Source: an uncultured delta proteobacterium (GTDB taxonomy: Bacteria > Desulfobacterota > Desulfobacteria > Desulfobacterales > JAFDCJ01). From it: a stretch of DNA of 64,000 nt. The notes below the pieces were generated by a model. That model was given only the letters and a program-made list of their open reading frames with translations, did not search any database and had not been told where the DNA came from. Shown piece after piece: positions 9,615 to 63,933 of this stretch. Position 1 is the stretch's first letter, and the number at the start of each line of letters is the position of its first letter. Where the stretch lies: NCBI GenBank assembly GCA_963769935.1, contig CAVYNY010000007.1, forward strand, positions 32,001-96,000, given 5' to 3'. Made by a program: the position numbers and the translations under genes.

Positions 9615-9750
9615 ATTGAAGATTTAAGATTGAAGATTGAATATTTGTGGTATCCTATCTTTATTATATGGGCATTTTTGCCGGTAATACCGGCGGAGAC
9701 GAAAAAATAATGGACAGTATTCCTTTAATCTTCAATCTTCAATATTCAAT
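9615..9750. repeat. Palindromic element with ATTGAAG/CTTCAAT heptamer arms (family C)
   Basis: ATTGAAGATTTAAGATTGAAGATTGAAT ... TTTAATCTTCAATCTTCAATATTCAAT; homologous to 28163-28287. Confidence 0.8.
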
Positions 9751-10468
9751 GCATATAACCACCGACACTTTTTTTGACGGTTCAATTCAGGTAATGCAAA
9801 GCCGGACCGGGTATCGCTTTTCAATTGATTCCGTCTTGCTGGCATTTCATGCCGGTCCGCGATCCGGTGATAAAGTTCTGGATTTAGGTGCCGGCTGCGG
9901 TATTCTCTCTCTGATCCTGGCTGTTCGCGCACCGGATATCAGAATTTTTGCGGTTGAATTGCAGTCGGAGCTGGCCGGCCTGGCTGAGGCCAATGTCCAA
10001 CGAAATCAGCTGGAGGATCGTATTCAAGTGATGTGTAAGGATATGAGATTGCTGAAACCGAAAATGACCGTTGGCCCGGTTGATTTAATTGTGTGCAATC
10101 CGCCTTATCGCAGGCCCGGTTCCGGTAGAATAAACCCGGCTGAACAACGTGCGGTCGCTCGTCATGAAATAAAAGTCACATTGAATGAAATCCTCGAGAC
10201 TGCTCGCCGGATGCTGCGAACGGGGGGGCGGTTTGTAACGATTTATACGGTCGAGCGGACAACCGACATCTTATTCGGGATGCGAAGTGAACATATTGAA
10301 CCGAAATTCATGCGATTGATTCACTCCACTCAGGATACAGAGGCCAAGCTGGTTCTCATCGAAGGTGTCAAGGACGGAAGACCGGGACTCAAAGTCGCGC
10401 CTGCTCTGATCCTTTACGATAATAACGGTGACTATACGAAGGAAGTGAAGCCGATGTTTGCGCCCTGA
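9749..10468 (+). CDS. tRNA1(Val) A37 N6-methyltransferase family (YfiC/TrmN6-like)
   Basis: GYRFSIDSVLL, VLDLGAGCG, CNPPY and ARHE; the upstream ORF extension runs through a repeat and is probably spurious. Confidence 0.85.
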   Translation: MHITTDTFFDGSIQVMQSRTGYRFSIDSVLLAFHAGPRSGDKVLDLGAGCGILSLILAVRAPDIRIFAVELQSELAGLAEANVQRNQLEDRIQVMCKDMRLLKPKMTVGPVDLIVCNPPYRRPGSGRINPAEQRAVARHEIKVTLNEILETARRMLRTGGRFVTIYTVERTTDILFGMRSEHIEPKFMRLIHSTQDTEAKLVLIEGVKDGRPGLKVAPALILYDNNGDYTKEVKPMFAP

Positions 10469-10605
10469 AAAATATATTTGCAATTCAGGCGGGCAGGTCT
10501 TAAAATAATCTGCTGGATCAGTGAGCCGGCTGCCAGATGATCGTTGACAGCTTGCGGCAAAAAGTATATTGAGACCTACTTAATTTTGATTTATTGGTTC
10601 AACCC

Positions 10606-10695
10606 GGAGAGGTGGCTGAGTGGTTGAAAGCGGCGGTCTCGAAAACCGTTGGGGGTTCGCGCCCTCCGCAGGTTCGAATCCTGTCCTCTCCGCCA
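10606..10695 (+). tRNA. tRNA-Ser(CGA)
   Basis: GGAGAGG acceptor stem, anticodon loop CT-CGA-AA, long variable arm, GGTTCGAATCC, 3' CCA. Confidence 0.95.
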
Positions 10696-10716
10696 TCTTT
10701 GATTTATCCGATATGC

Positions 10717-10810
10717 GGAGAGATGTCCGAGCTGGCTGAAGGAGCACGACTGGAAATCGTGTGTACTGCCAAAAGCGGTACCGAGGGTTCGAATCCCTCT
10801 CTCTCCGCCA
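10717..10810 (+). tRNA. tRNA-Ser(GGA)
   Basis: GGAGAGA acceptor stem, CACGA-CT-GGA-AA-TCGTG, long variable arm, GGTTCGAATCC, 3' CCA. Confidence 0.95.
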
Positions 10811-10820
10811 TCAGCAAAAT

Positions 10821-11068
10821 AAATGCCAAAAGTGATCTAAAGTGCCTAAAATGCCTAAAATTAATGTATTCTGTCCATTTAATGATAGATTGTCTAAATT
10901 CTGGCCCGGACCTTGATTAAAAGCATCCTAATCCAATGTTGGCATTTCGTATTTATAGATCGAAGTTTAGCTATTCAGAGGCGAGTCGCGCCAGTGCGAG
11001 TCTCAACTCAATTTAGTTTACTTTAGTTTACTTTAGGCAATTTAGGCATTTTTAATTTTAGGCACTTT
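10821..11068. repeat. Palindromic element with AAATGCCTAA/TTAGGCATTT arms (family B)
   Basis: Tandem AAAGTGCCT/AAATGCCTA units on the left and TTTAGGCA/TTTAGTTTAC units on the right; related copies at 13194, 47726 and 63755. Confidence 0.8.
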
Positions 11069-11071
11069 ATT

Positions 11072-12751
11072 ATGTCCTATCTTGTTCTCGCACGCAAGTA
11101 TCGCCCGCAAACCTTTGAACAGGTTGTTGAACAGGCACACATCACCCGAACATTGACCAACGCGATTTCGACGGGGCGCGTGGCCCATGCCATATTGTTC
11201 TCCGGACCTCGCGGCACCGGTAAAACAACCGTGGCCCGCATCCTGGCCAAAGCAATGAACTGCAAGGAAGGCCCGACGCCCGAACCATGCAATGTTTGCC
11301 GATCCTGTGCAGAGATCACCGCAGGGCATGCGGTTGACGTCTTTGAGATTGACGGCGCGTCCAACAACAGTGTCGACCAAATCCGGGAGTTGCGGGAAAA
11401 TATCAAATATATGCCTGCCCACAGTGCCTTTAAAATCTATATTATCGATGAAGTCCATATGCTCAGCACGGCTGCCTTCAACGCTTTGCTCAAGACCCTT
11501 GAAGAACCGCCCTCCCATGTCATGTTCATGTTTGCCACTACCGAACCGCACAAGATTCCGATTACAATTCTTTCCCGTTGCCAACGACATGATTTTAGAC
11601 GCATCAGCCTGGCGTCCATTTCCAATCACATGGCTTGGATTTGCGCCCAGGAAGGCTTTGAGAGCAGCGAACAAAGTCTTGGGCTGATTGCCCGGGAGGC
11701 CGGCGGGAGCCTGCGGGATGCCTTGAGCTTGCTTGACCAGATCATGGCGAGCGCCCAGGGAAAAATGACCCACGAACAGGTGCTTGACATTCTTGGAGTT
11801 ATCGACCGTAAGATGATATATGATCTTGCGACAGCGATTTTAGCTGCCGATATCCCGGCCGTTCTCGATCTTTTGGATGACATTTATGATCGTGGCCATG
11901 ATATGAAGAAGCTTTACGCGGATCTACTGGAACATTTCAGAAATCTGCTGGTTGCCGCCATAGGCCAGAAAGTTGACAAGCTGGTGGATCTTCCAGCCGG
12001 TGAAATTGAGCAATTAATGCAACAGGCCGGGCAGGTTTCGCATGGTGCCTTGAACCAGATTTTTGATTTGCTGTTCAGAGAAGAGCTTAACGTCAGACTT
12101 TCACCTCAGCCGAAGTTGGCCCTGGAGATGGCTCTGATCAGGTTGCTGCATGTCAAACCGGCGCTGCCGATAGATGTTTTAATCGATAAACTCGATGACC
12201 TCCGGCAGAGGATCCTGCCTTCCTCGCAACGGCCGGAGATCGCCGAGCGCCCAGCGATGGAATCCAACCCTGATGAAGATCTTTCCGGCCACTCCCGGAT
12301 GCTGCCGTCCTCAGGTGAATCAAAAAAAGAACCAATGCGGACCGACGCCGCAGCCGTCCCCCCGCTATCCGGGCCGGCTGAAACTCCGGTCGAGATTTGG
12401 CGGCACATTTTAGAACTCATCGCCCGCCATAGTCCGTCCCTGGCTGCCAACCTGTCCAAATGTCAAATCAAAGCAATCGCGGACCAAACCATTGAAATCG
12501 AGGTTCCCGGCAACGGCTTTACCTTAAATATGATTCAGCGTGAAAAAAATATGGCGGTGTTAACGAAAATCTGCGAGGACATCTTGGGCCGCCGCCATGA
12601 GATCCAATTTACGGCCAACAGCACTCTGGAAGATAATACGCGTAAAAAAAAAACGGCTAATCGACTGAAACAAAAAGCCATCAGTCATCCCCTGGTGGCT
12701 GATGCCATTGAGATTTTTAACGGCAAAGTGATCGATGTGAAAATATTGTAG
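11072..12751 (+). CDS. dnaX: DNA polymerase III subunit gamma/tau
   Basis: [29 protein letters not shown]. Confidence 0.98.
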
Positions 12752-12776
12752 GCACTTTTTTATTGGAGGTATGTAT

Positions 12777-13088
12777 ATGAAAGGAATGGCCAACATGATG
12801 AAGCAGGCTCAGAAGCTTCAAGCCCAGATGCTGAGACTGCAGGAAGAATTGGCAGAAAAAACTGTGGAATCCAGCTCCGGCGGCGGCATGGTGACGGTCG
12901 TCGCCAACGGTCGACAGCAGATCGTATCGATTAAGATAGAACGTGAGGTGGTTGATCCGGAAGACGTCGAGATGCTCCAGGATCTGATTCAGGCTGCCGT
13001 CAATGACGCTCTGGCTAAGGCCCAGGAGATGGTAAGCTCTGAAATGGGAAAACTGACAGGCGGTCTGAATATACCGGGTTTAACGTAG
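12777..13088 (+). CDS. ybaB: YbaB/EbfC nucleoid-associated protein
   Basis: [37 protein letters not shown]; lies between dnaX and recR. Confidence 0.95.
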
Positions 13089-13089
13089 G

Positions 13090-13224
13090 CGGGGTGCGCG
13101 TTGCGAGTTGCGGGGACCAACGGATTAACGAATGATCCGCCGAAGGCGGATCGAATGAAGGAATTCTACTGTTTTAAATAGACAGAGTACCCTAATTTTC
13201 AGGCATTTTCAAATTTAGGCATTT
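13090..13224. repeat. Composite repeat (TTGCG heptamers, ATCCGCCGAAGGCGGAT hairpin, family B right arm)
   Basis: Seen directly in the ybaB-recR gap. Confidence 0.65.
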
Positions 13225-13228
13225 ATCC

Positions 13229-14997: not shown

Positions 14998-15031
14998 TCC
15001 CTAACCGGGTTAGACCGGAAAAATAGCTGAA

Positions 15032-16306: not shown

Positions 16307-16342
16307 GATATCGGAAACGCAGGCCTGTTTATTCTAAGATTG

Positions 16343-16746
16343 AAACCCTGGTCCTCTGGGCAGGGTCCGAGAAGTTTTGTTGTGCCGTAAAGGTATGCGA
16401 TGCGGTATTGGAATAGTGGAATGTTGGCCCGCCCTGGCGCGACTCTTTTCTAAGTTGTTGGATCTAGTGCAATGATTAAATATTTTAGCCGAGCAGACTT
16501 TCTATGAGATCGGTCTGGGCCAGGGAATACTGGGTTTGGTGGAATGAGATCTATTTTTCCAGAGATGGCACTTAGCAGGAAATAAAATCAGACTATAATC
16601 CACTTTTCAGCCCCAATATTCCATTATTCTCTCCGATCCGTAGGCTCTAAGAGCCGGAGGCCAGTATTCCATCATTTCATGGGTTATCTGGCGGCAAACA
16701 CCACCCTTTTGGGTGAAGTCAAAGCCTGACCTTCTGAGCCATGATT
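16343..16746. mobile_element. Non-coding composite element bounded by degenerate direct-repeat hairpins (possible IS200/IS605-derived non-autonomous element)
   Basis: AAACCCTGGTCCTCTGGGCAGGGT at the left end and AAAGCCTGACCTTCTGAGCCATGATT at the right; nested GGAATA/TATTCC octamer arms. Confidence 0.45.
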
Positions 16747-16748
16747 TT

Positions 16749-20243: not shown

Positions 20244-20465
20244 ATGAAATTCCAAAGCTCAAGCACCAAATTACAAATAAATCTCAAATCTCAATATTCA
20301 ATGACCTAAACCTTCATCACAATTATATCGTGACGACTCGTAAACCCTGGTGTGCCGAAGATGATGCCCCTGGGCGCAGGAGTGGACGGTCCATTTGTTT
20401 GGGTTTTTGAATTTGGGTCATTGAGATTTGTTTGCGATTTGGTTTTTGGTGCTTGGAATTTTCAT
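20244..20465. repeat. Family A palindromic element (AAGCACCAAATTACAAATAAATCTCAAA arms), 85-nt spacer
   Basis: Arms homologous to 34348-34589 and 44873-45001. Confidence 0.85.
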
Positions 20466-21134: not shown

Positions 21135-21215
21135 GGTTGGATTGTTGAGATCGTTTGGATCGTTGAGATAGTTTAGATCGTTGAGATCGTTATATTCGGT
21201 TGAAATAGTTGGTTG
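21135..21215. repeat. Nonamer tandem repeat (GTTGAGATC-like, family E)
   Basis: About eight degenerate 9-mers; the reverse complement matches 27455-27514. Confidence 0.75.
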
Positions 21216-27246: not shown

Positions 27247-27250
27247 AAGC

Positions 27251-27514
27251 GCGTTACGGGTTGCGGGTTTGCGGGTTACGGTTTGCGGGTTGCGGGCGAA
27301 GGGCGCATAGGGCATGGGGCACAGCGCATAGCATAAAAAAGCAGAGTGTTGCCGGAGGGTACTTCAAGTGTCGACTCCCGGTTGATGGTTGATAGGCGAT
27401 ATTTCATAGTTGATAGGTGATAGTTCATGTCTCCCTTCGACTCAATCAACTCAATCAACTATTTCAACCGAAATTAACAATCTCAACGATGCAAACGATT
27501 CAAAACATCCAAAC
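27251..27514. repeat. Mosaic of short-period repeats (TTGCGGG, GCATAG, TTGATAG, TCAAC/nonamer)
   Basis: Four adjacent blocks fill the ruvC-ruvA gap. Confidence 0.75.
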
Positions 27515-27535: not shown

Positions 27536-28168
27536 GTGATCGGCTATCTCGAAGGTAAATTGTTAAAAAAAGAAGAGGATCGCGTGCTGATTCTCGCCAA
27601 CCAGATTGGCTATGAAGTTCTGCTTCCGGCCGTTGTGATGAAATCTTTGCAAAACCAAAGTATCGGGGGGCAGGTTTCGCTTTATATTTATTTTCATCAA
27701 ACCGAGCGACAACCGAAACCGGTTTTGATCGGCTTTAATCTTGAGGTCGAGCGCGAATTTTTCCAGTATTTTATTTCGGTGGAGGATATCGGCCCTTTAA
27801 AAGCCGCGAAAGCGCTGGAGGTTCCGGTCAGGGAAATCGCCACTGCCATCGAGTCCGGGGACATCGGCAAACTCACCCAACTAAAAGGCATCGGCCGGCG
27901 AACCGCACAAAAAATCATCGCCAGCCTGGGAGGTAAAATGGGTAAGTTCGCCCTGATTCGGACTGCCGAGAACCAGGAGCAGGCCCCCGCCGTGGAAGAT
28001 TTCTCGCAACAGGTGCTGGACGTGATGGTTAAACAGCTCGGCCACAAACCGGCCGACGCCAAACAGATGATTGTCAATGCCATGCAGCGCAACCGTTCCA
28101 TCACCTCCGCGGAAGCATTGTTTGATGAAGTGTATCGAGGAGAAAAAATGGAGGGCGAAGGAAATTGA
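27536..28168 (+). CDS. ruvA: Holliday junction branch migration protein RuvA
   Basis: MIGYLEG, IGYEV, HhH motifs IGP..A and LKGIGRRTA. Confidence 0.9.
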   Translation: MIGYLEGKLLKKEEDRVLILANQIGYEVLLPAVVMKSLQNQSIGGQVSLYIYFHQTERQPKPVLIGFNLEVEREFFQYFISVEDIGPLKAAKALEVPVREIATAIESGDIGKLTQLKGIGRRTAQKIIASLGGKMGKFALIRTAENQEQAPAVEDFSQQVLDVMVKQLGHKPADAKQMIVNAMQRNRSITSAEALFDEVYRGEKMEGEGN

Positions 28169-28287
28169 AAATTGTAAATTGAAGATTGAATATTTGTGGA
28201 AGTCGCTGCGCTCCGTCATTTCTATTTTAATTATTTAAATCGATAGCATACCTTAAATATTCAATTTTAAATCTGCAATATTCAATC
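28163..28287. repeat. Family C palindromic element with AGTCGCTGCGCTCCGTC core
   Basis: ATTGAA/TTCAAT heptamer arms; includes the ruvA stop codon. Confidence 0.8.
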
Positions 28288-32129: not shown

Positions 32130-32361
32130 TGCTGTTCGATTGCCTCCAACAACAAAGCGGCCTAATTTTAAGATTACTCCGGGAATTTTTCCGAGAGGGG
32201 TTCACGCAGCTGCCGGGCCGCTCGCAGATCTTTCGACTTAAACTGAATGCTGAAACCGCTTCAAATATTTTTTCATTTCTGGGCGGAAGACCGAGTTATA
32301 ATACATTTACAGCGCTTGCTTTTGCAATGTAATTATCATGTTATTTAAATTAGTTTTTCCC

Positions 32362-34347: not shown

Positions 34348-34589
34348 AAATTACAAATTCCAAGCACCAACTTCCAAATAAATTCCAAATCACAATGATC
34401 AATAACCGAAACCGGCAACCAAGCAGGTCCAGCTGGTTAGTTTTCGGTGTTAAGAACTCGCGTACGTTCGTGATCAGGGATCGCTTTTTTATAAGAAGCA
34501 ATAACCAAAACCTGTTGAAGTGCAGTTTGGAATTTTGAATTTTGGGTATTGGAATTTGTTTGGGATTTGTTATTTGGAATTTGTAATTT
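34348..34589. repeat. Family A palindromic element, 112-nt spacer
   Basis: Arms homologous to the copies at 20244 and 44873; sits between pxpA and pxpB. Confidence 0.85.
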
Positions 34590-40523: not shown

Positions 40524-40591
40524 GTTTCTACGGTACTATTGCTATAAATAGGTTAATATACTGCTGACAAAAGTTCTTAAAAACCTGGACC

Positions 40592-40676
40592 TGGAGTACT
40601 GGAGCATTGGAGTATTGGAGTATTGAAAAATAAGCCATCAATACTTCAGGCATCACTCCATCACTCCAGCACTCCA
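40592..40676. repeat. Family D palindromic element (TGGAGTAT/ACTCCA octamers)
   Basis: TGGAGTACTGGAGCATTGGAGTATTGG ... CACTCCATCACTCCAGCACTCCA. Confidence 0.8.
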
Positions 40677-40761
40677 ACATGTCCGGAAGAAATCACGCCT
40701 CGGCGTAACGAAGTCGGCCATTCGGAAATTTTATGACTTTATTCGATACAGGATAACTCCT

Positions 40762-41775: not shown

Positions 41776-41851
41776 AGGTTATCAATATAGATAGATCCGT
41801 TTGATATGTGAATGCCGTTCGTTAACTATCTGCTGTATACAAGGAGTCGTT

Positions 41852-43151
41852 ATGACATTTCAGGAGGTGCTGGCCAAAGTCGTTGACTGGCTTCAGCACA
41901 GCGAACGGGTCTCCTATCGGGCAATCAAACGGCAGTTTGAGCTGGATGATGAATACCTTGACGATCTGAAGGAGGCAATCCTCTTTGCGCACCCCCAGGT
42001 TGTCGATGAAGAAGCGCGGGGTCTGGTCTGGACTAATGAAGCCAGCCCACCGCCCGAGTCGATTCCCGGACCTATTCCTCCAAAAGAAATGCCTCGAGAC
42101 AACCACAACACACAAAGCGAAGTCCAGCCGTCCACGTCTTATACTTCGGATGCCGAACTCCGCCAACTGACCGTAATGTTTTGCGACCTTGCAGAATCGA
42201 CCAGTCTTTCCGGCCGATTGGAGCCGGAAGAATATCGGGAGGTGGTTCGGGCCTACCAATCCGCCTGTGAGAAAGCCATCCAATCCTATGATGCCTATAC
42301 CGCCCAGCACCTTGGGGATGGGATGCTTATCTATTTTGGTTTCCCGCAGGCCCATGAAGATGACGCCCTGCGAGCCGTGCGGGCAGGTCTGGATTTAATA
42401 AAGGCCATCGGGTCCCTCAACCCTCAGTTGCATCGAGACAAAGGCATCCGACTCGAGGTGCGCATCGGCGTTCATACCGGGCCGGTTGTCGTCGGCCAGA
42501 TCGGTTCGGGTGCACGGCAGGAACTGCTTGCCTTGGGGGAGACGCCGAATATTGCAGCACGCATCCAGGGGATTGCAGCGCCCGACACGGTTGCAGTCAG
42601 CTCAACGACTTTTAAGATGGTTGAAGGATACTTCACGGCGAAGGACCTGGGGCTTCAGCCGGTGAAGGGTATCGCAGCGCCGATGCAGATTTACAGCATC
42701 CTGGGGGAAAGCGGCGTCCAAAGCCGGCTTGACGTAGCCCTAATAAGAGGACTTACACCGTTGGTTGGACGCGAATCGGAAGCCAATCTGCTCTTCGAAC
42801 GATGGGACCAAGTAAAAGAGGGGATGGGACAAGCCGTGCTGCTGACAGGTGAAGGCGGGATCGGGAAGTCGCGCTTGCTCCAGGTCATGAAAGCGCACAT
42901 CAGAGGTAAAACTTGAAGCAGAAGTTGAAGCCTGCTTTCAGCAAGCCATCGAAATAGCCCGACAACAGTCGGCGAAGTCCTGGGAATTGCGGGCGGCCAC
43001 GAGCTTAAGCCGTTTATGGCAAAAGCCGGGTAAAAAGGCCAGGGCCCTTTCGCTGCTGCAGGAAATCTACGACTGGTTCAAGGAGGGGTTTGATACAGCC
43101 GATCTGAAAGAGGCCAAAGCGCTCCTTGAAGAATTGTCCGAAGAGAAATAG
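41852..43151 (+). pseudogene. Class III adenylate/guanylate cyclase-AAA-TPR gene with a large internal deletion
   Basis: 41852-42916 encodes the cyclase (TVMFCDL, LGDG) and stops just after Walker A GEGGIGKS. 42915-43151 (+1 frame) encodes the typical C-terminus EACFQQAIEIARQQ.AKSWELRAATSL...YDWFKEGFDTADLKEAKALL. Confidence 0.85.
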
Positions 43152-44872: not shown

Positions 44873-45001
44873 AAAATCACAAATTACAAGCACCAAATTA
44901 CAAATAAATCTCAAATTCCAATAATCAATGACCGAAACCACTAGTTTTGAATTTTGAATTTTGGTCATTGTTATTTGTTTGTTATTTGTGATTTGTCATT
45001 T
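44873..45001. repeat. Family A palindromic element, near-empty form (5-nt spacer)
   Basis: Arms homologous to the copies at 20244 and 34348. Confidence 0.85.
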
Positions 45002-47719: not shown

Positions 47720-47725
47720 ATAGTT

Positions 47726-47872
47726 AAAATGCCTAAATTCTAAAATGCCTAAAATTACGGCACTGTCAAATTACCAGGACTTTGGGACTAGTTGGGGAGT
47801 GTCGGAGTATTGGAATGTTGGCGTATTGGTATTTTCCATTACTCCATTACTCCATTACTCCAGTTCCAATAC
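47726..47872. repeat. Family B half-element plus family D octamer palindrome
   Basis: AAAATGCCTAAA twice, then GGAGTATTGGAATGTTGG ... CCATTACTCCATTACTCCATTACTCC. Confidence 0.75.
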
Positions 47873-47944: not shown

Positions 47945-49257
47945 CTAAAACTTCTGGAAGGGATAAATCATGTCGGCTGAAGCGACATCAAAGGGGTAGA
48001 CGATCTCCAGCACGATCTGGCCGTCGGCGCTTTTTTGGTACTGTCCGATCAGGCCGGAGCCCAGTGTATTCTGGCCGAGCTCATCCCCGGAGGTGGAAAA
48101 TTTAATTCCGGCCCACGGCACTACAAGCTCGCTGCCCGGAATGTCTATCTCATTGGCGGCCTTTTGGATGGCAGCCGGTTCGGTCGATGCGGATTTTTCC
48201 AGCACCTGCACCCAGGTTTGCAGACCGGTGAAGGATCGGGCGGAGGCGCCGGTCAGATCATTGCCGGTTTTAGCCTTGTAAAGCGCGTTGACCTGTCCGG
48301 CAACCTTTTTCAGCTGAACGACCTGGGGCAGAAATACGGTGCGGGTCAGAATACCGACGACACTGTCCCTAGCGTCGTCGCGGAATTCCGGCACCTCGAA
48401 TCCGGCGTCCTGACCCCAGATGATCTTCGGTTGGGCCTTCTGAGCCTTCATCGTTTTGATCATCAGAATGGCGTCCGAGGTGTAGGAGGCAAACAACATC
48501 ACATCTGCACGGGAGGCTTTTAAAGACCGCACCTCACTGGAGAGATCGGGTGCTTCCTTGGCATACAGCATGGATTTTCGCAAATTGTAGCCGTAATCTT
48601 GGCAAACTTCTGAATCACTTCCGAGACAAATGAGCCCCATTCGGTTTTTTCGCAGGCCGAGGATAGGTTCATGATATCTTTTTTGGGGACTGCCGCAACC
48701 CCTCTAACCTTACCCTCGGTCAGGCCTTTTAAGAATTCAAAGAGGTCTTTGGTGAACCAGACGTCGTGGGGGGTCGTGCGCCAGAACCATTTGAAACCGC
48801 GTTGGGTCAGGGACGGGGACGTGGATGAACCGTTGATCATGGGAACGCCGTACTGTTCGGCGACGGCACTGACGGTTTTGGTGACGGAGCTGTGGTAACA
48901 GCCCAGCAGACCATCCACCTTGTCATCCAATATCAGTTTCTTGGCCAGGTCGGCTCCCAAGGTGGGATTTCCCTCATGATCCTTGAAGATGATTTCAATC
49001 TTGGCTCCACCCATGCTTTTGATGCCGGCGTTTCTGGCCATGCTCATATCGATATCAGCCATCGCATTATTGGCGATCTCCACGGCGAGCTCCACGCCGG
49101 CGCGCAGCTCGCGACCGGCCGCAGCCGCACCGCCGGTCAGCGGATAGAGGGCGCCGATTTTAATTGTCTTTTGCGCCAGAACCCCCGCCGGGAAAATCAT
49201 CCCGATCGCCAATATCAGACTCAACAGGCCCAATCCGTATCTCAAAACTTTTTTCAT
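47945..49257 (-). pseudogene. Liv-type ABC substrate-binding protein split by a 1-nt frameshift near 48598 (pseudogene or sequence error)
   Basis: ORFs 48520-49257 (signal peptide, IKIGALYPLTG) and 47945-48640 join at ..KFAK|DYGYNL.. if one base is restored. Confidence 0.8.
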
Positions 49258-49545
49258 ACCAAAACCTCCTTTCAGATTTTATGAGCGCCTAATTTTAAGG
49301 TCGGTGTGTATCTATGATTCAGATTCAAAATCTTTATAGGAATCATTGCAGCCTGTCAAGGTTCAAACAGCTATTTAAATCAGGTGGTCGGGGTGAGATG
49401 GGATGGGGCTGCGGGAAAATAAAGCGATTGCGTTTGAAGGAGGCGTCAGTTGTTGGTTGTCGGTTGAAAGTTGGTTTATTCGAGTTCGTGCTTTCGTGAT
49501 TAATTTCTTTTTTAGCTCCAGCTTACCCGGGTTAGGTAAGTTGCC

Positions 49546-55610: not shown

Positions 55611-55624
55611 GACTTAGTTGCCTC

Positions 55625-57001: not shown

Positions 57002-57075
57002 GAGTCCATCCTCCCTGAAACGTATTAAACAGTCGTTAAGTGTTCCGAGGTTTAATCATATGATAGCAATCAATT

Positions 57076-57119: not shown

Positions 57120-57398
57120 TAATTGCGCGCTTTACTCGGTTGAGGACGCATCGGCCTGCAGGATCAATGACTGGAATTCCATTGCCTGCAACGCCACACA
57201 GGTGTCGGGAGATTGCATGACCGTTGTCGATAACACCTGCCGCAATGTGAATTTCGGCATTATTTTGAATGGTTAGGGAGAAGTAGGTTGACAATGATAC
57301 CGGTATTGGATATTTTGATCGTATTGATGACATCTGGCTGGAAGCATTCCCAACCTGCAGGTTTCCCGAAAAATGACAGCTCAACGGAAAGTAAGGCT

Positions 57399-57806
57399 AT
57401 GGCAAACAGAGCCATCGATTGGCTGAATCAGGCGGAAGGTGACTTGAATCACAGCAAGAATGCCAGGAAGGTCGGCGATTACGACTGGGCGTGTTTTGCC
57501 GCCCAGCAGGCTGCGGAAAAGGCGGTTAAGGGGCTGATGCTTTCAAAAGGCGGTGAGGGCTGGGGCCATTCGGTGATGCGGCTGCTCAAGGATCTTTCCG
57601 CAATTATGAAGATTTCGGAAAGTTTGATCCGATCCGGTATGATGCTGGACAAACATTATATTCCTACCCGCTACCCCAATGGTTTCGACACCGGCGCACC
57701 CAAAGAGTATTACACCGATGAAGAAGCAGAAAAAGCCATCCGGGACGCGCAGCAAATATACGACTTTTGCCGTCAGTCGTTTTCTAAATCCGGAGCCGGT
57801 GATTGA
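57399..57806 (+). CDS. HEPN domain protein
   Basis: W..QA..DL, ACF.AQQAAEKAVK, GHS, LD.HYIPTRYP. Confidence 0.9.
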   Translation: MANRAIDWLNQAEGDLNHSKNARKVGDYDWACFAAQQAAEKAVKGLMLSKGGEGWGHSVMRLLKDLSAIMKISESLIRSGMMLDKHYIPTRYPNGFDTGAPKEYYTDEEAEKAIRDAQQIYDFCRQSFSKSGAGD

Positions 57807-58089
57807 CGAGCTCAAAGCAGCCGTACGGAGGCTAAAAAAACGCCGCCCTGATATACAGGCCGTATATCTTTTCGGCTCTTATGCCTCAGGGACCCCGGGG
57901 CCGAAAAGCGACGCGGATCTCATCATCGTCACCGAAGAAAGCTCCATGGAGGACATCCAAACGCAACTCCTGCAGGTTTCCGTTCCGGTGGATCTCTATC
58001 TGCTGAATCCTACCGTATTCCGGCAAAAAGCGGCTGCGGAAGAAGGCATTGCAGCTGTCGCGGTCCGCAGCGGCATCAAACTCCTTTAA
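57718..58089 (+). CDS. Minimal nucleotidyltransferase (MNT)
   Basis: LFGSYA.G.....SDADL, PVDL; overlaps HEPN; start uncertain (57718 or 57799). Confidence 0.85.
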   Translation: MKKQKKPSGTRSKYTTFAVSRFLNPEPVIDELKAAVRRLKKRRPDIQAVYLFGSYASGTPGPKSDADLIIVTEESSMEDIQTQLLQVSVPVDLYLLNPTVFRQKAAAEEGIAAVAVRSGIKLL

Positions 58090-58155
58090 CCTCCGCCGAA
58101 TATAATAAATACATGTATGATCGACTCTTTTTTTAACGGCGGGAGGTGTAGACCT

Positions 58156-59187: not shown

Positions 59188-59350
59188 AAAATCATTTGAA
59201 ATTCTTCTTGAACGCGAAAGCAATACAAGTATATTGAGAACTTTTGATCTTCCGGTCATCGGCCGCTACTTTCCGGAATATGAAAAGGTGATTCGTAAGA
59301 TGATTAGCGGTTAAATTAAGAGCAGAAATCGCCTCATTGCTCAATTGCTC

Positions 59351-60133: not shown

Positions 60134-60156
60134 TACTATTGCGACCTCCATAATTC

Positions 60157-60231
60157 GTTTGCCGGTTTGCCCGTTGCCCCGTGGCCCGTTCTGCATTTAT
60201 ACCGGCTCAACTGGCAAACGGGCAAACCGGC
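60157..60231. repeat. TTGCCCG/CGGGCAA short-period palindrome
   Basis: GTTTGCCGGTTTGCCCGTTGCCCCG ... ACTGGCAAACGGGCAAACCGGC. Confidence 0.65.
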
Positions 60232-60249
60232 CTACTTTTATAAGTACTT

Positions 60250-61449
60250 TTAAATAATCATTATCTCCTCCGGATACTTCCCCAACTGCTCCAAGCCATC
60301 CCGGGTCACCACATGGGTGTTTTCGATGCCGACCACCCCCCGATCCGGAAAGATCAGCTTGGGTTCCAGGGCGATGGTCATGCCTTCCTTTAATTTGAGT
60401 TTTTGACCGGTGGCCAGAAAAGGAAATTCATCCACTTCCAGTCCGATCCCGTGACCGACAAAGCGCACGCGCTCTCTGCCGGTTCCCATAAAATATTGCT
60501 CATAGCCTAATTCAGCGGTTTTTTCCAGGGCCTGATCGTAAATTGCGCCGGAGGGTGTGCCCGGTCTGGCAATTTTTTTTATCATCTCCTGGACCTGCAG
60601 CATGGCGGCATGCGCATCCAGCAGTTCCTGCGGCAAAGCCCCCAGTGAGTAGATGCGGGTATGATCGGAAAGATAGCCGTTGTAGGCAAAGACATAATCA
60701 ACCATAACCGGTTCATGGCGCCGTATGATTTTATAGCCTGGTCCCTGGGCCATCGCCGGACCGGGACCGGCGCCGCCGGTGGGAGAGGACAGATAACTGG
60801 GCACGGCGCCGCTGGGGCCTGACAGCAGATGCCCGTAAAACATTTCACTGCCCCACAGCCGCATCCGTATGGCCCCCTGGTGCCCCAGCCTTCTGGCTTC
60901 GGCTTCAATCAACCCGGCAAGCTCCAGCTCCGTTGCACCTTCGCGCAGGACGCTGGGAACCCAGGCGGCGACCTGATCCGAGAGTGCGGCCGCCCGCCGC
61001 ATGATGCCGATTTCATGGGAAGATTTTACGGCGCGCAGCAGCCGGATCGGATAGGAGATATCCGTTATCTCGATGCCGTTGAAAATCCGTTGATAGTTGA
61101 GAAACATATTGGTGGGCAGGACATCCAACTCCAAGCCCAGGCTTTTGGGCAGGTCATAGCCCCTTGCGTTAAGGATATCCGGAATGTGTCTGGGACTATC
61201 CAGGTGTACGATGGTTGCCAGGTTGGATTCGGCCCTGGCCCGTTCCGTGTTTTTGTTCACCATCAGGACGGGGTCTGCCTCAGCCGGTACGTAGAGACAG
61301 GCCTGCTGGAAGGTGCCGGAAAAATACAGCAGATCGACGCGTTGTACAATCAGGGCGGCATCGATGCCGTTTTGGCTGAGATGGTCCTTTAGGTTATTGA
61401 TGCGCTGTTCAAGTTCCGCCCCGGGGGTGTTGAATTCAGAATTGTACAC
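60250..61449 (-). CDS. M24 family Xaa-Pro peptidase-like protein
   Basis: RAVKS..EI, GY.SD.TR, GHGIGLEVDE.P, ALEP, GIE. Confidence 0.9.
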   Translation of the reverse strand: MYNSEFNTPGAELEQRINNLKDHLSQNGIDAALIVQRVDLLYFSGTFQQACLYVPAEADPVLMVNKNTERARAESNLATIVHLDSPRHIPDILNARGYDLPKSLGLELDVLPTNMFLNYQRIFNGIEITDISYPIRLLRAVKSSHEIGIMRRAAALSDQVAAWVPSVLREGATELELAGLIEAEARRLGHQGAIRMRLWGSEMFYGHLLSGPSGAVPSYLSSPTGGAGPGPAMAQGPGYKIIRRHEPVMVDYVFAYNGYLSDHTRIYSLGALPQELLDAHAAMLQVQEMIKKIARPGTPSGAIYDQALEKTAELGYEQYFMGTGRERVRFVGHGIGLEVDEFPFLATGQKLKLKEGMTIALEPKLIFPDRGVVGIENTHVVTRDGLEQLGKYPEEIMII

Positions 61450-61566
61450 GTGCTAAGAATTCCTTTCCTTTCTGGATACTGGATGCTGGATGTTTTAGGT
61501 GTGCACAACCTAACAATACCGGATACCTTGTGATCATTTGTCATTTGGGGAATTGCGGCGCGTGCT

Positions 61567-62556
61567 TTATTCTTCCGCATTCCAGCAGCGCACGTAGTGA
61601 TTGTCTCCAACCTCAATAAACGCCTGCAAGCCTTCATCGCAGCGGGATTGGTGTAAAGGACATTTTTGACCGAAATTGCAGCCGGCGGACGGATTCAATG
61701 GCTCCGGCGGAACTTCTTCCGCGCTCATTACGGCACGTTCTTTCTCTATTCCTGAATCCGGTGCAGCCGACAGCAGCAAATGGGTATACGGATGGCAGGG
61801 ATTGTCAAAAAGCGCATCGGCCGGCCCATACTCCATGATCTGGCCGCGGTACATCACGGCAACATCATTGCACAGATATCCAACGACGTTCAAGTCGTGC
61901 GATATAAACAGATAGCTTAATTCCAGCTGATCCTGCAAGTCTTTTAGCAGATTAATGATTTGAGCCTGGATTGAGACATCCAGGGCTGAAACCGGCTCAT
62001 CGCAGATAACCAGTGACGGTTGCACGCTTAAGGCCCGTGCGATGCCGATCCGCTGGCGCTGTCCGCCGCTGAATTCATGGGGATAGCGGTCGATGCTGCG
62101 CGGAGACATTCCAACCATCTTAAGCAGCTTTTCGAGCTGCGCGTCTTTTTCCTGATTGTCCCGGAGGCCATTCATCTGAAGTCCTTCCGAGAGCGTTTGT
62201 CCAACGGTCATTCTAGGGTTCAGGGAACCATAGGGATCCTGAAAGATGATCTGGATCTGCTTGCGAAAAGGCTTCATTTCTTTTTCGGTCAGTTCGGTTA
62301 TATCCCGTCCGTCGAAGATGATTTTGCCGTCGTCGCTAGGCAATAACTTGAGTATCAGCCGGGCCACAGTCGTTTTACCGCAGCCGCTCTCACCCACCAG
62401 GCCGAGTGTCCGGCCTTTTTCGATTCGAAACGATACGTCTTCAACCGCATTGACCCAACCGGTGACCCGTTGTAAAAATCCGCGGCGGATCGGGAAGTAT
62501 TTTTTCAAGTCCTCGACTTGGAGGATGATGGTATCGGTTTTTGCGTTAAGTGCCAT
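61567..62556 (-). CDS. Oligopeptide/dipeptide ABC transporter ATPase (OppF/DppF-like)
   Basis: [42 protein letters not shown], Cys-rich tail. Confidence 0.92.
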   Translation of the reverse strand: MALNAKTDTIILQVEDLKKYFPIRRGFLQRVTGWVNAVEDVSFRIEKGRTLGLVGESGCGKTTVARLILKLLPSDDGKIIFDGRDITELTEKEMKPFRKQIQIIFQDPYGSLNPRMTVGQTLSEGLQMNGLRDNQEKDAQLEKLLKMVGMSPRSIDRYPHEFSGGQRQRIGIARALSVQPSLVICDEPVSALDVSIQAQIINLLKDLQDQLELSYLFISHDLNVVGYLCNDVAVMYRGQIMEYGPADALFDNPCHPYTHLLLSAAPDSGIEKERAVMSAEEVPPEPLNPSAGCNFGQKCPLHQSRCDEGLQAFIEVGDNHYVRCWNAEE

Positions 62557-62605
62557 TATGATTCTGATAAATTTTAAATGATTTGCCCTCTGTTGATAAA
62601 CTATC

Positions 62606-62714
62606 TGGCGTACTGGAGCAATGGAGTGCTGGAGTATCGGAAAATGAGGATGCCGTCGACACTCTCCGGACAGATATTTTTTCTACCGCATTACTCCAAT
62701 ACTCCATCTTTCCA
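62606..62714. repeat. Family D octamer palindrome overlapping the oppD-like stop codon
   Basis: TGGCGTACTGGAGCAATGGAGTGCTGGAGTATCGG ... CATTACTCCAATACTCCATCTTTCCA. Confidence 0.75.
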
Positions 62715-63698
62715 ATTTATTTTCTCATACAACACCGGACATCGTGCCAGATGCCCCTCACCGTAGTTACTGATGCCGGGAAACTGTTCCCGGCAGGTCT
62801 GGATTGCATGGGAGCAGCGCGGATGAAACGGGCAGCCGTTGGGTTTGTAAGCCGGATTCGGCACGCTCCCGGGAATACTGTGAAGCCTTTGTCCGCGCTT
62901 TGACCGGTGCGGCAGAGATGCCAGCAAGGCTCGCGTATAGGGATGCTGCGATGTGCGAAAAATATGATCCTTGTTGCCCTGCTCGACAATAATGCCGGCA
63001 TACATGACGTAGATCCGATCCGCTACCTTCGAGACCACACCCAGGTCATGGGTGATGTAAAGCACCGACATGGCGCGGTCCTTCTGAATGGTGTTCAGCA
63101 GTTTCAATATCTGAGCTTGAACGGTCACATCCAGCGCGGTGGTGGGCTCATCGGCGATAATCAATTCGGGACTGCAGGCCAGAGCCATGGCAATCATGAC
63201 GCGCTGGCGCTGGCCTCCGCTTAACTGGTGCGGGTAATCACTTAGGCGTTCATCGGCCGAGGGGATTCCCACATCTTCGAGCAGTTGGAGACAGCGGGAC
63301 TCTATTTCTTCTTTCGGTACCGTTTTGTGGGTTCCGAGGGCTTCGGCAATCTGATCTTTGATTGTGAAAACCGGATTCAAGGAGGTCAGGGGTTCCTGAA
63401 ACACCATGGCAATATGGTTGCCCCGAATGCGCTGCATTGCCTCCTCATCATAATCGATGAGGTTTTGATCCTTGAATAAAATTTTTCCGCTGACGATTTC
63501 ACCCGGTGGTACAGGAACGAGTCCCATGATGCTGAGAGCCGATACGGTTTTACCGCAGCCGGACTCGCCTACCAGGCACACCGTCTCCTCGCGCTGCACA
63601 TCAAAACTAACGCCGTCCACGGCCCGCGCCACTTCGTCCTCACTGCGGAAATAGATCCTTAGATCTTCAACGGACAGTAATATGTCTCCGCCAATCAT
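62691..63698 (-). CDS. Oligopeptide/dipeptide ABC transporter ATPase (OppD/DppD-like)
   Basis: [44 protein letters not shown]. Confidence 0.92.
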
Positions 63699-63754
63699 AA
63701 CATCGTCCAGGGCAAATTACTTTTTGCCGCTTAATAGAGTGATCCAGATTGCTG

Positions 63755-63933
63755 AAAAATGCCTAAAATCGATGAGTCGCTGCGCTCCGTCTTTTAAAAA
63801 GTAGAATTCTTTCTATGAGAACCAATCGAGAGGATGGTTTGAATTCGCTTCCCTCTAAATTATCCTTAATATTTTTAATCGATAGCATACCACAATTTTA
63901 GGCATTTTAGGCACTTCGCATTTTAGGCATTTT
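63755..63933. repeat. Family B palindromic element with AGTCGCTGCGCTCCGTC core
   Basis: AAAATGCCTAAAA left arm, three TTTTAGGCA units on the right. Confidence 0.8.

Follow-up and report, generated by a model that had tools for sequence, protein, structure and literature searches.

Short-period array elements between the genes of a Desulfobacterales genome as predicted gene-less copies of PF05635 cassettes

A stretch of 64,000 nucleotides from an uncultured delta proteobacterium of the Desulfobacterales (hereafter the window; contig CAVYNY010000007.1, positions 32,001 to 96,000) carries arrays of short tandem units in many of its intergenic gaps, which raises the question of what these arrays are and how they came to their present places. 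A previous sequence-only reading proposed one family of mobile or structured-RNA elements that is neither CRISPR, REP, nor a standard IS.

Array elements in the window

Between 9611 and 64000, 30 intergenic gaps of 40 bp or more were examined, and 17 of them contain arrays of 7-9-base units, in agreement with the at least 15 gaps previously counted; the units named earlier were all found in their places by TRF, and the gene names given to the operon gaps agree with Pfam (YbaB, RecR, RuvC/A/B, LamB_YcsF + CT_C_D, two liv ABC ATPases, and two opp ATPases). As also proposed, the elements are non-coding and multi-copy (5 to 251 blastn matches genome-wide per window element, self included), no gene body of the window holds any of them, and stop or start codons are abutted or supplied: the ruvA stop TGA lies within the first ATTGAA units of the ruvA-ruvB element, the dciA stop directly abuts an element arm, and an ATG is present in the last unit at 9748-9753. 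No strand is assigned to the elements described below.

Ten array-bearing elements have arms that face their reverse complements. An ATTGAAG-type-arm hairpin lies between dciA and a methyltransferase gene (9611..9751; 211 blastn genome matches), with 5.0 copies of GAAGATT at 9611-9645 facing 4.0 copies of CTTCAAT at 9723-9750 (TRF; inverted repeat I7, 28 nt, 89%) and an RNA fold of -43.4 kcal/mol (z -5.25). Immediately after two tRNA-Ser genes (tRNAs 10606-10810) and ahead of dnaX lies a AAATGCCTA-type-arm element (10821..11069; 93 matches), in which 4.4 copies of AAATGCCTA at 10821-10861 face TTTAGGCAA at 11032-11052 (TRF; inverted repeats I9 and I17) across a loop of 160-190 nt. Three elements share the arm type TIR_A: one in the sdhC / HD gap (20247..20461; 123 matches), which consists of quasi-heptamer arms of 65 nt (built from AAATTCC, AAATTAC, and AAATCTC; inverted repeat I2, 72%) and an 85-nt loop; one in the pxpA-pxpB gap that has a long core (34348..34589; 139 matches), with AAATTCC at 34348-34390 and TTTGGAA at 34526-34589 (TRF; inverted repeat I1, 65 nt, 75%); and a short, nearly loopless one in the livF-livG gap (44875..45001; inverted repeat I6; 183 matches), the fold of which is weak (z -1.82 vs shuffles).

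The ruvA-ruvB gap holds an ATTGAAG-arm hairpin of 128 bp (28156..28283; 28156-28286 as counted among the facing-arm elements), which has the core GTCGCTGCGCTCCGTC ... ATCGATAGCATACC (inverted repeat I4; fold z -2.75) and is covered over at least 86 of its 128 bases in 47 of 184 blastn matches. Both halves of this core recur between other arms, AAAATGCCT ... ATTTTAGGC, at 63745..63933 (TRF 63895-63933; 65 genome matches), which is the modular case, one core with different arms. Between adhE and a DHDPS-family gene lies a TGGAGTAT / CATCACTC hairpin (40585..40680), with 4.2 copies of TGGAGTAT at 40592-40625 facing CATCACTC at 40651-40676 (TRF; fold -38.9 kcal/mol, z -6.67). At 47725..47862, a solo array of 3.7 copies of TAAAATGCC (47725-47755) is followed by a GGAGTATT / TCCATTAC hairpin (47796-47862; TRF; fold of 47790-47865, z -6.61). 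The remaining paired element is a GC-rich TTGCCCG / AACCGGCA hairpin (60156..60231; TTGCCCG at 60167-60190 by TRF; inverted repeat I13, 22 nt, 86%; fold -44.3 kcal/mol, z -5.44), the left arm of which overlaps the initial codons of the D-glutamate cyclase gene, taken as its longest ORF.

The other elements are solo or composite arrays. The ybaB-recR gap (13089..13228; 9 matches; fold z -1.67) begins with a degenerate array of the TTGCGGG type and ends with one of the TTTAGGCAT type, both recognised by eye and under the TRF threshold; because the two are dissimilar, they count as two solo half-elements. In the HK-RR / sdhB gap, TGGAATA-type arrays stand on either side of a long loop (16380..16700; 64 genome matches), and the ruvC-ruvA gap holds a composite of five arrays (27249..27504; TRF), namely GCGGGTT x6.7 (27249-27296), GCATAGG x3.9, GTTGATA x6.4, ACTCAATCA x2.3, and AACGATGCA x2.2. 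Further solo arrays are GTTGAGATC x6.3 (21136..21191; TRF; fold z +1.16; 49 matches), GTCGGTT x3.1 (49445..49466; TRF), CTGGATG x3 (61472..61492; TRF; fold z +1.25), and, between oppF and oppD, a degenerate array of the TGGAG type (62605..62640; fold z -1.10), which was recognised by eye and is absent from the TRF list. Five paired elements (9611-9751, 28156-28283, 40585-40680, 47796-47862, and 60156-60231) thus fold better than their shuffles, and the five solo arrays tested fold no better than theirs (z +1.25 to -1.67). No partner gene is encoded within the window, in keeping with the earlier statement that it holds no mobilising enzyme.

Genome-wide abundance and turnover

Short-period arrays are abundant throughout the genome, the TRF rows of period 7 numbering 1553 against 129 in a 300-bp-block shuffle (12-fold), those of period 8 873 against 162, and those of period 9 868 against 146. 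On the crude longest-ORF gene map used for the genome-wide counts, 1188 of 1499 period-7 arrays lie mainly outside ORFs, where the non-ORF share is 18% of the genome. A best ungapped stem score of at least 14 was reached in 588 of 4674 real gaps and in 8 of 4674 shuffled gaps. The genome has 1647 distinct canonical units, and its elements are many dispersed families, not one. Of the proposed single mobile family, the non-coding nature is retained and the singleness is not.

Whether an orthologous gap is occupied differs from species to species. Across 12 same-genus genomes, a block of 16 syntenic genes shows different units in different genomes at its gaps, which range from -20 to 289 bp (ruvC/ruvA), 18 to 292 bp (ruvA/ruvB), 5 to 335 bp (ruvB/SAM_HAT), and -26 to 333 bp (pxpA/pxpB). 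The ruvC-ruvA gap measures 289 bp here against a span of -20 to 135 bp among 11 genomes of the genus, the pxpA-pxpB gap measures 333 bp here against -26, 76, and 164 bp in three relatives, and related elements occupy the ruvA-ruvB site in 3 of 10 same-genus genomes. Among 80 metagenome relatives, the ruvC/ruvA gap spans -17 to 459 bp (arrays in 17 of 74) and the ruvA/ruvB gap -50 to 507 bp (arrays in 22 of 66). One arm type is found at the ruvB/SAM_HAT site of five species, with loops from 23 nt to ~270 nt, a pattern that agrees equally with decay in place and with transposition.

Occupancy apparently also changes between strains. In contigs of runs X3 and X4, which differ in ~2% of letters (a ~98%-identical strain), 28155 is joined to 28284, and exactly the 128-bp ruvA-ruvB element is missing; this joint comes solely from contigs of two RNA libraries of one study, the DNA runs examined having the filled form, and a near-identical strain probably has an empty site at the DNA level. 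In run X4, an RNA library, one contig skips the whole ruvC-ruvA gap (293 bp; intervening letters not known), and DNA run X2 has a 22-bp deletion in the GCGGGTT array, the first of the composite at 27249..27504.

Target duplication is absent in 98 elements, with a mean end repeat of 1.99 nt vs 1.90 nt in permuted pairs; the comparison of orthologous gaps suggested earlier has revealed presence and absence among relatives. Relative to co-directional neighbours, the core of the 128-bp element lies 15 times in sense and 18 times in antisense, and TIR_A 25 and 26 times. The non-coding core of the 128-bp element is common to 47 matches, and ~50 TIR_A elements at unrelated sites have common non-repetitive cores and inner stems.

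PF05635 cassettes and the proposed origin

PF05635 is the 23S-rRNA-IVS/Avd-like four-helix-bundle family, first known from ribosomal-RNA intervening sequences (IVS); to our knowledge, its proteins have neither a known mobilising activity nor a known nuclease fold. The genome has seven PF05635 matches (Pfam profile), and all seven genes lie between complementary upstream and downstream arms scoring at least 12, which bears out the suggestion of the sequence-only reading that such arms might enclose four-helix-bundle/Avd-like genes. Reverse transcriptases had been suggested as well; none lies near any of the seven cassettes, the closest RVT_1 match on a shared contig being ~90 kb off. In the same genus, matching arms occur at 32 of the 36 PF05635 loci examined, out of ~150 matches listed, vs 12 of 108 permuted upstream/downstream pairs. 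In all seven cassettes the only parts repeated elsewhere are the arms (3 to 163 matches), and the ORFs are single copy.

The cassette G000:C13:92533-92904 has arms and inner stems in common with the window elements 9611-9751 and 28156-28283. Gene-less ATTGAA elements align to it only at positions 83-127/130 and 528/539-580, and therefore have a short loop in place of the ORF; the element 9611..9751, with 91% identity to positions 83-127 and 95% to 561-580, is a putative gene-less form of this cassette. The unit of 40585..40680 is also the arm unit of the PF05635 cassette G000:C9:239319-239618, and the CTGGATG of 61472..61492 that of G000:C20:251437-251760. In the 45 largest unit families (1247 arrays), 432 arrays use a unit from the cassette arms of this genome, and 761 do so when the cassettes of 29 relatives are added; large families without a cassette among the 36 examined are ACACCTG (56 arrays), AAAGCACG (49), and AAACCTG (43). 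Protein similarity follows the arms in close pairs only, arm 7-mers being shared by 9 of 15 protein pairs with at least 70% identity vs 3 of 615 pairs below, which may be plain shared descent.

The 21-base TIR_A motif was found in at least 124 stretches of other genomes, with record titles, among the matches listed, from Desulfobacterales, Bacteroidota, Acidobacteria/Aminicenantes, Omnitrophota, Patescibacteria, Verrucomicrobiota, Nitrospirae, Elusimicrobia, and Gammaproteobacteria. This arm type borders PF05635 genes in other phyla, with the start codon inside the arm: three downstream ORFs, picked by look from 29 of at least 55 aa, were scanned, and all three pass the PF05635 cut-off.

With moderate confidence, we favour the explanation that the elements are gene-less copies of hairpin cassettes with a PF05635 gene, predicted to be mobilised in trans without target duplication, with the cognate protein recognising the arrays. 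They would form dispersed repeat families with inverted arrays of 7-9-base units as arms, and gene-less copies would multiply after gene loss; such multiplication is suggested by shared non-coding cores and by a random orientation, in contrast to the cassettes, which follow the direction of their operons (5 of 7 that of both neighbouring ORFs). The arrays may be binding sites of the cognate PF05635 protein, and their unit number would be altered by replication slippage, as the 22-bp length variant in a DNA run supports. In operons, the transcribed arms would pair and keep the flanking RNA joined, by analogy with RNase III-cut rRNA intervening sequences, which would make an insertion behind one gene's stop and ahead of the following start tolerable; the mismatch and arm-pairing comparisons given below lend this RNA part no sequence support. 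Speaking against the explanation as a whole are the large unit families that lack a cassette among the 36 examined, the arm likeness confined to close protein pairs, the joint at 28155 to 28284 seen solely in RNA libraries, and the pattern at ruvB/SAM_HAT. If true, this explanation would tie together two long-unexplained features of bacterial genomes.

Alternative explanations and known systems

The elements might instead be plain simple-sequence repeats (like cyanobacterial STRR heptamers) grown in place by slippage, with palindromes formed via template switching and PF05635 genes as bystanders. The 22-bp variant, the 1647 units, and the many solo arrays (only 423 of 4268 arrays are in a strict same-unit inverted pair) agree with this, as does the heptamer excess reported for many genomes (PMC4692102 and PMC4679880). 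However, non-repetitive cores and inner stems are common to unrelated sites, the 21-base arm motif occurs across many phyla, arms and core are present or absent as a single piece at ruvA-ruvB, and PF05635 loci have their own matching arms far above permuted pairs. As the sole explanation it is already weakened, and we consider it improbable.

Host-selected RNA signals in operons (RNase III sites, stabilisers, attenuators, or coupling devices), spread via selection for function and not selfishly, are similarly unlikely. Many elements do lie between co-transcribed genes, four in the window have stable stems (z -5.2 to -6.7), 275 of 413 stems are closer to the upstream stop than to the downstream start, 108 of the 413 start within 10 nt of the upstream stop or overlap it, and RNase III acts on rRNA IVS stems (PMC4990558). 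Against this stand the random orientation and the same gaps being empty or holding unrelated units in sister genomes. Moreover, the elements have no Rfam match even at E 0.1, the sense strand has no excess of G.U-type (527) over A.C-type mismatches (516), and rare arm variants are compensated in 36 of 727 cases vs 45.9 expected; selected RNA structure, which had been offered as one option, is therefore not supported by these comparisons. Pairing between the two arms of an element (24.29 of 36 pairs) is also no better than pairing with the arm of a different copy (25.12), the real value being reached in 300 of 300 permutations.

Ordinary MITEs moved by the DDE transposase of an IS elsewhere in the genome are very unlikely: small size, partial AT-richness, multiple copies, inverted ends, and variable internal parts would suit them, but 98 copies lack a target-site duplication, same-unit pairs spaced 250-4000 bp are inverted (110) about as often as direct (103) and enclose ordinary host genes (judged from translations), and dozens of unrelated arm types have no matching IS. 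Least probable is mobilisation by a RAYT (HUH Y1 transposase), as for REP/REPIN-type elements, which would agree with the population structure of a single-copy gene between repeats plus many gene-less doublets, the 11 Y1_Tnp matches in the genome, and the missing target duplication, but tandem-repeat arms occur at 0 of these 11 genes, where the best flanking complements are non-repetitive, and the gene between arms is PF05635, not an HUH enzyme. The exclusion of CRISPR, classic REP, and a standard IS by the sequence-only reading is upheld, and the HUH/RAYT nucleases it suggested as enclosed genes showed no link to the arms.

The gene-less copies of PF05635 cassettes favoured here resemble REPIN-RAYT systems (PMC3116915) in three ways: a single-copy gene stands between repeats of its own type, gene-less hairpin doublets of that type form a large intergenic population, and target duplication is lacking. 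They differ in that the flanked gene encodes a four-helix-bundle protein and in that the arms consist of tandem units, where REPINs have single palindromes of 20-40 bp. With MITEs they have in common a small size, no coding content, many copies, inverted ends, and descent by deletion from a gene-bearing unit, but neither target duplication nor a DDE transposase parent was found here. The protein family is shared with Avd of diversity-generating retroelements, which PF05635 resembles according to PMC10053308, but the cassettes have no reverse transcriptase nearby.

Tandem 7-mers concentrated in intergenic DNA are also known from the STRR of Calothrix/Nostoc and the inverted GGGAATC pairs of Xanthomonas (70-75 pairs convergent, length strain-variable), which are treated in PMC4692102 as simple-sequence or G-quadruplex repeats; neither 'four helix' nor 'intervening sequence' occurs as a term in that text, and the elements described here differ in their many unit types per genome and common non-repeat cores. 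The TAACTGA repeats of marine Beggiatoaceae likewise form abundant intergenic heptamer arrays near gene ends, but consist of one direct unit upstream of start codons, with a single inverted set reported (PMC4679880).

A published general link between heptamer-repeat arrays and PF05635 genes was not found in the papers searched, such a link being printed only for single rRNA IVS cases. The closest likeness is to the ORF-bearing 23S rRNA IVS of Coxiella burnetii and Leptospira, in which terminal inverted repeats enclose a PF05635/S23p ORF, tandem heptamers precede it, the insertion is in a transcribed region, and the repeat number is strain-variable (PMC4990558). The units described here differ from that description in lying between protein genes of operons and not in rRNA helices, in having multi-unit arrays of dozens of sequence types as arms, and in reaching hundreds of gene-less copies per genome. 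The Coxiella 23S IVS combines an S23p ORF, tandem GACAGAT heptamers, and a 28-bp terminal stem cut by RNase III (PMC4990558), and this layout provides a printed precedent for the cassette design.

Arrays and hairpins in the window and in the source genome

The source genome comprises 7.99 Mb in 41 contigs (about 51% G+C) and is 96.7% complete according to marker genes. Pfam searches of the window supported the gene map of the sequence-only reading, with DciA, methyltransferase, dnaX, ybaB, recR, sdhCAB, tolQRAB-pal-ybgF, ruvCAB, and rplM-rpsI, as well as pxpABC, aldehyde/alcohol dehydrogenases, livFGMH, a MacAB-type pump, and oppDF; two tRNA-Ser genes are located at 10606-10810. The liv periplasmic binding protein gene falls into two ORFs that overlap (47945-48640 and 48520-49257, minus strand), both matching Peripla_BP_6, which reflects either a frameshift or a sequencing error. 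The adenylate-cyclase gene (41801-43150) stops 50 positions into an AAA_16 domain (Pfam), and by our reading the apparent gap behind it still codes for the C-terminus of a large regulator; the locus resembles a gene that has lost a large internal part. Beside the efflux operon, a HEPN-domain ORF (Pfam) followed by what we read as a minimal-nucleotidyltransferase-like sequence (57288-58100) would be a HEPN/MNT toxin-antitoxin-type pair.

TRF returned 63 rows for the window, those of period 7-9 mostly in gaps between genes, and every repeat unit named in the sequence-only reading was present. Arrays of 7-9-base units occupy 17 of the 30 gaps of at least 40 bp between 9611 and the window end, and the elements are all sited between protein or tRNA genes. 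Facing reverse-complement arms are found in 10 elements, and the loops between them measure from 6 to about 190 nt. Compared with 200 shuffles, RNA folding was far better in five paired elements (z of -5.25, -2.75, -6.67, -6.61, and -5.44), weakly better in one (z -1.82), and no better in five solo arrays. The elements had also been said to abut or supply stop and start codons, and this holds for several of them: the ruvA stop is a TGA within an ATTGAA unit, the base after the dciA stop is the first base of an arm, and the last unit at 9745-9751 continues into an ATG. Pfam and the gap sequences revealed no ORF of PF05635 (the 23S-rRNA-IVS/Avd-like four-helix-bundle family) in any window element.

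Genome-wide, TRF produced 5878 rows, against 1067 in the same genome shuffled in 300-bp blocks. The difference was 12-fold for period 7 (1553 vs. 129), and was also seen for periods 8 (873 vs. 162), 9 (868 vs. 146), and 14 (425 vs. 28). On a crude longest-ORF gene map (6908 ORFs over 81.9% of bases), 1188 of 1499 arrays of period 7, 584 of 809 of period 8, and 345 of 827 of period 9 (3135 arrays in all) lie mostly outside ORFs, and one array or more is present in 1557 of the 4958 gaps that reach 40 bp. Strict same-unit pairing placed 423 of 4268 TRF arrays in an inverted pair, but was replaced by a stem scan because it under-counted degenerate partners; a symmetric ungapped stem (score >= 14) was then present in 588 of 4674 gaps of 40-700 bp, against 8 in the same gaps shuffled. 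In blastn searches of the genome, 16 window elements gave 5 to 251 matches each, self included; the window elements are dispersed families, not local oddities. Among stems in co-directional gaps, the 5' arm is G-rich (on both strands) in 198 and C-rich in 75, a built-in polarity.

PF05635 cassettes and their probable gene-less copies

[quoted passage not shown] Searching the whole genome for this family identified seven PF05635 matches, all above the curated cut-off and all between inverted arrays; the sequence-only reading had named four-helix-bundle/Avd-like proteins among the genes to look for beside such arms. Each of these cassettes has its own arm unit (ATTGAAG, CTGGATG, TGGAGTA, GAGTTGATT, GGCCCGTT, GAGGTTG, and the purine-rich AGAAGAGC type), and in all seven the copies elsewhere in the genome are confined to the arms (3 to 163 matches), the ORFs being single copy. 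The left arm starts at or within a few bases of the preceding gene's stop in four cassettes (contigs C19, C20, C13, and C9), and five point the same way as both neighbouring ORFs of the crude map. PF05635 is present in all 23 genomes of the genus, with 1 to 13 matches each. Among 36 loci taken from about 150 in the genus, 32 had a complementarity score of 12 or more between their own arms, compared with 12 of 108 permuted partners. The protein of the C13 cassette (C13:92533-92904) is closest by sequence, among solved chains, to 2rld_A, an uncharacterised protein (E 2e-12). Co-variation between protein and arms was discounted as evidence of recognition, being indistinguishable from shared descent.

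The C13 cassette carries ATTGAAG arms, and its PF05635 gene runs into the right inner arm, where it ends with a TAA stop. Gene-less members of the ATTGAA family match this cassette from position 83 (the first arm base) to 127-130 and from 528-539 to 580, with no match between the two blocks; window element 9611-9751 is 91% identical over positions 83-127. Both this element and 28156-28283, the 128-bp element of the ruvA-ruvB gap, have homologous arms and inner stems with the ORF missing, and we refer to them as gene-less PF05635 hairpin cassettes, which is a working class and not a published family. The three TIR_A window copies belong to the same class through cassettes in other phyla; no gene-bearing TIR_A copy is found in their own genome. 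Among the matches listed, the TIR_A motif occurs 128 times at 124 loci of other genomes and is followed just downstream by an ATG-initiated ORF of at least 55 aa in 29; three of these ORFs, picked as family-like, were scanned and all passed the PF05635 cut-off. One of the three has its start ATG within the inner end of the arm, and the gene-less TIR_A copies of the window's own genome retain that ATG.

The 45 largest unit families account for 1247 of the 3135 arrays; 432 of these arrays share a unit with the genome's own cassette arms, and 761 do so when the cassettes of 29 relatives are added. Families such as ACACCTG, AAAGCACG, and AAACCTG have no cassette with that unit in the examined sample.

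An anchor search detected 98 distinct copies of the ATTGAA family, each consisting of 3-5 ATTGAAN units, an inner stem, a short variable loop, and a mirror-image arm. The non-coding core of the 128-bp element is common to 47 of its 184 blastn matches, and modules recombine, since both core halves of 28156-28283 recur at 63763-63893 between AAATGCCT-type arms. Many ATTGAA elements are also adjoined on the left by a small CCGG-loop-CCGG hairpin (TCCGGACGAGCCGGA type), or on the right by its complement, as a further outer module. TIR_A has quasi-heptamer arms of about 65 nt at about 100 arm loci, with loops from near zero to about 130 nt. Its 21-base arm motif (window 44897-44919) was found in at least 124 stretches from other genomes, where by our own estimate less than one match would be expected by chance under uniform base composition. 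Among the matches listed, the labels of the MAGs carrying it name at least nine groups of phylum level, among them Patescibacteria, Bacteroidota, and Desulfobacterales. The distribution of this motif points to one cassette lineage spread between phyla.

Turnover, position, and orientation of the elements

The sequence-only reading had called for a comparison of orthologous gaps, and presence or absence of the elements does differ among same-genus genomes. A 16-gene block (HD, tolQRAB, pal, ybgF, ruvCAB, SAM_HAT, one hypothetical gene, rplM, rpsI, and pxpABC) is syntenic in 11 of them (RuvA identity 73-78%). The tight tolQ-tolR, tolB-pal, rplM-rpsI, and pxpB-pxpC gaps never vary, and the variable ones range from -20 to 289 bp (ruvC-ruvA), 18 to 292 bp (ruvA-ruvB), 5 to 335 bp (ruvB-SAM_HAT), and -26 to 333 bp (pxpA-pxpB), with units differing from genome to genome. 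Three relatives share the ATTGAA element between ruvA and ruvB and one has it in reduced form; three carry other families in its place, and others lack it. The ruvB-SAM_HAT gap is 5 bp in the window's own genome; in five relatives it holds GGTTCAGR-type arms with loops of 23 to about 270 nt, or one arm alone, which suggests that elements also decay in place.

Since the 80 metagenome relatives had RuvA identities of 66-88%, none closer than 88%, they widened the comparison between species only. In these, ruvC-ruvA gaps range from -17 to 459 bp (50 of 74 at most 40 bp; arrays in 17 of 74) and ruvA-ruvB gaps from -50 to 507 bp (28 of 66 at most 40 bp; arrays in 22 of 66). A nested insertion, a GC-rich palindromic repeat of about 110 bp, was observed within the loop of the ruvA-ruvB ATTGAA element of a sister genome. 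At the same gap, one sister genome has the outer ends of the element alone, joined at a perfect TTGAATATTCAA palindrome, and another has about 87 additional central bases; this is either growth from the palindrome centre or internal deletion.

Public runs contain the window stretch. In two metatranscriptome libraries of one study, contigs covering ruvA and ruvB with about 2% other letters join 28155 to 28284, the exact absence of the 128-bp element, and RuvA ends in GEGN-stop with the element and GII-stop without it. The joint was seen only in RNA-library contigs, while the two DNA runs examined have the filled form; the simple reading of these RNA-library contigs would be an empty site in a close strain. 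One joint-bearing contig also skips 293 bp between ruvC and ruvA, with unread letters in between, and a DNA run carries a 22-bp deletion inside the GCGGGTT array, the first array of 27249-27504 in the ruvC-ruvA gap. At the CYTH-rplM gap (32149-32341), an RNA-library contig skips 128 bp, and in a DNA run 188 bp are replaced by 12 other letters; as this gap has no heptamer array, other indel-prone DNA is present in these gaps too.

Among 413 stems between co-directional genes, 275 are nearer the upstream stop and 134 nearer the downstream start, and 108 overlap the stop or begin no more than 10 nt from it, compared with 28 for the downstream start. Since an empty operon gap often has only a few bases, this position may mark where insertion is tolerated rather than a target preference. 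Relative to co-directional neighbours, polar gene-less copies stand in the two orientations almost equally (15 vs. 18 for the 128-bp core; 25 vs. 26 for TIR_A), whereas the gene-bearing cassettes run in the direction of their operons. Decay in place would be expected to leave a sense bias, and from this random orientation we infer that at least the ATTGAA-core and TIR_A families spread after losing the gene.

A structured-RNA nature, proposed as one option in the sequence-only reading, has in its favour the folding of the paired elements, but did not stand up to comparison of their arms. On the sense strand of the 413 stems, G.U-type mismatches (527) barely differ from A.C-type ones (516), with 136 elements leaning one way and 128 the other. 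In the 98 ATTGAA copies, a copy's own arms pair at 24.29 of 36 positions against 25.12 for arms of different copies (300 of 300 permutations reach the real value), and 36 of 727 rare variants are compensated, where 45.9 are expected. Selection at the RNA level was dropped, as the wobble and compensatory-change tests were both negative and Rfam gave no match. The complementarity is thus a family design and is not maintained copy by copy, which fits either binding sites, where the sequence of the ends is what is recognised, or neutral decay of young copies.

Proposed mechanism and comparison with known element classes

Family structure, the link to PF05635 cassettes, turnover, random orientation, length variation, and the lack of target duplication are the observations to which a mechanism can be fitted. 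The arrays would be putative binding sites for a cognate four-helix-bundle protein, and gene-less copies may have been moved in trans, the moving enzyme presumably being a host or other factor. Once transcribed, the arms might fold and hold stop and start close, and could perhaps be cut by RNase III by analogy with rRNA IVS. Solved relatives of the four-helix-bundle protein are reported to be pentamers (PMC4990558). The mode of units per arm is about four (446 of 1499 period-7 arrays have 3.5-4.5 copies), and unit numbers gave no clear support for a match of one unit per subunit to a pentamer.

In the broadest form of this proposal, four-helix-bundle (IVS/Avd-family) proteins would confer specificity on a separate class of mobile hairpins that spans phyla, with arrays of 7-9-base units as protein-binding ends and insertion without target duplication between a stop and the next start. 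Such a class would be the common origin of ORF-bearing rRNA IVS, cyanobacterial STRR, Xanthomonas heptamer pairs, and the hundreds of gene-less hairpins per genome, those of the window included; we put this forward tentatively, and consider it rather doubtful as a whole. To our knowledge, intergenic heptamer repeats (reported since 1990), ORF-bearing rRNA IVS, and the very large PF05635 family are each still without explanation. In this genome, heptamer repeats, IVS-type cassettes, and PF05635 appear as one system at high load, in which the same arms are found with and without the gene and species, perhaps also strains, differ by visible turnover. In practical terms, the elements donate stop and start codons, alter C-termini, break assemblies, and mislead gene callers.

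Among mobile element classes, a DDE-type MITE would agree with facing arms, but was dropped for lack of target duplication and of an excess of long-range inverted pairs: the 98 ATTGAA-family elements have no target duplication (mean end repeat 1.99 nt vs. 1.90 nt in permuted pairs), and same-unit arrays 250-4000 bp apart form 110 inverted and 103 direct pairs. No full-length IS with such arms as its terminal repeats emerged from these pairs. Besides PF05635, small ORFs between arms 300-1100 bp apart were read from their translations as rhodanese, thioredoxin, NuoE, KptA, MeaB, and similar, and look like ordinary host genes. A RAYT/HUH link of REP/REPIN type was likewise dropped, none of the genome's 11 Y1_Tnp genes having tandem-repeat arms; the elements are not classic REP, in agreement with the sequence-only reading. 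Two Y1_Tnp matches lie within 1 kb of a reverse-transcriptase match (C11:462316-463941 and C17:221555-223181) with identical RT scores, and represent a repeated RT plus IS200-like unit. The elements also differ from a diversity-generating retroelement, although PF05635 resembles Avd according to a DGR paper (PMC10053308): the 10 RVT_1 and 7 PF05635 matches are at separate places, and about 90 kb separates the closest two that share a contig (C13:456-1148 and C13:92588-92890). They are not CRISPR either, as their 7-9-bp units run head to tail with no spacers, instead of 24-48 bp direct repeats with unique spacers of similar length.

Whether the gathering score or E 0.1 was applied, Rfam matches in the window were limited to two tRNAs and, below threshold, a plastid motif over a tRNA, with nothing on the elements and no rRNA. 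In the literature searched, which excludes subscription journals, no paper linked PF05635 cassettes in general with heptamer arrays between genes. As in STRR-type repeats, tandem heptamers here are concentrated in intergenic DNA. Related patterns include the TAACTGA direct repeats of MacGregor (PMC4679880) and the 70-75 inverted GGGAATC pairs of Xanthomonas described by Rehm et al., who do not mention the four-helix-bundle protein (PMC4692102). The Coxiella IVS has an S23p ORF, a variable number of tandem GACAGAT heptamers, and a 28-bp terminal stem, and is cut by RNase III; the same paper quotes older ideas that IVS are mobile (PMC4990558). Unlike 23S rRNA IVS, the window elements are not insertions into helix 25 or 45 of 23S rRNA, and unlike the ORF-bearing ones they have no S23p/PF05635 ORF in the loop, which the seven cassettes elsewhere in the genome do have. 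Like 23S rRNA IVS, 10 window elements and all seven of the genome's own cassettes have stem-forming terminal inverted repeats.
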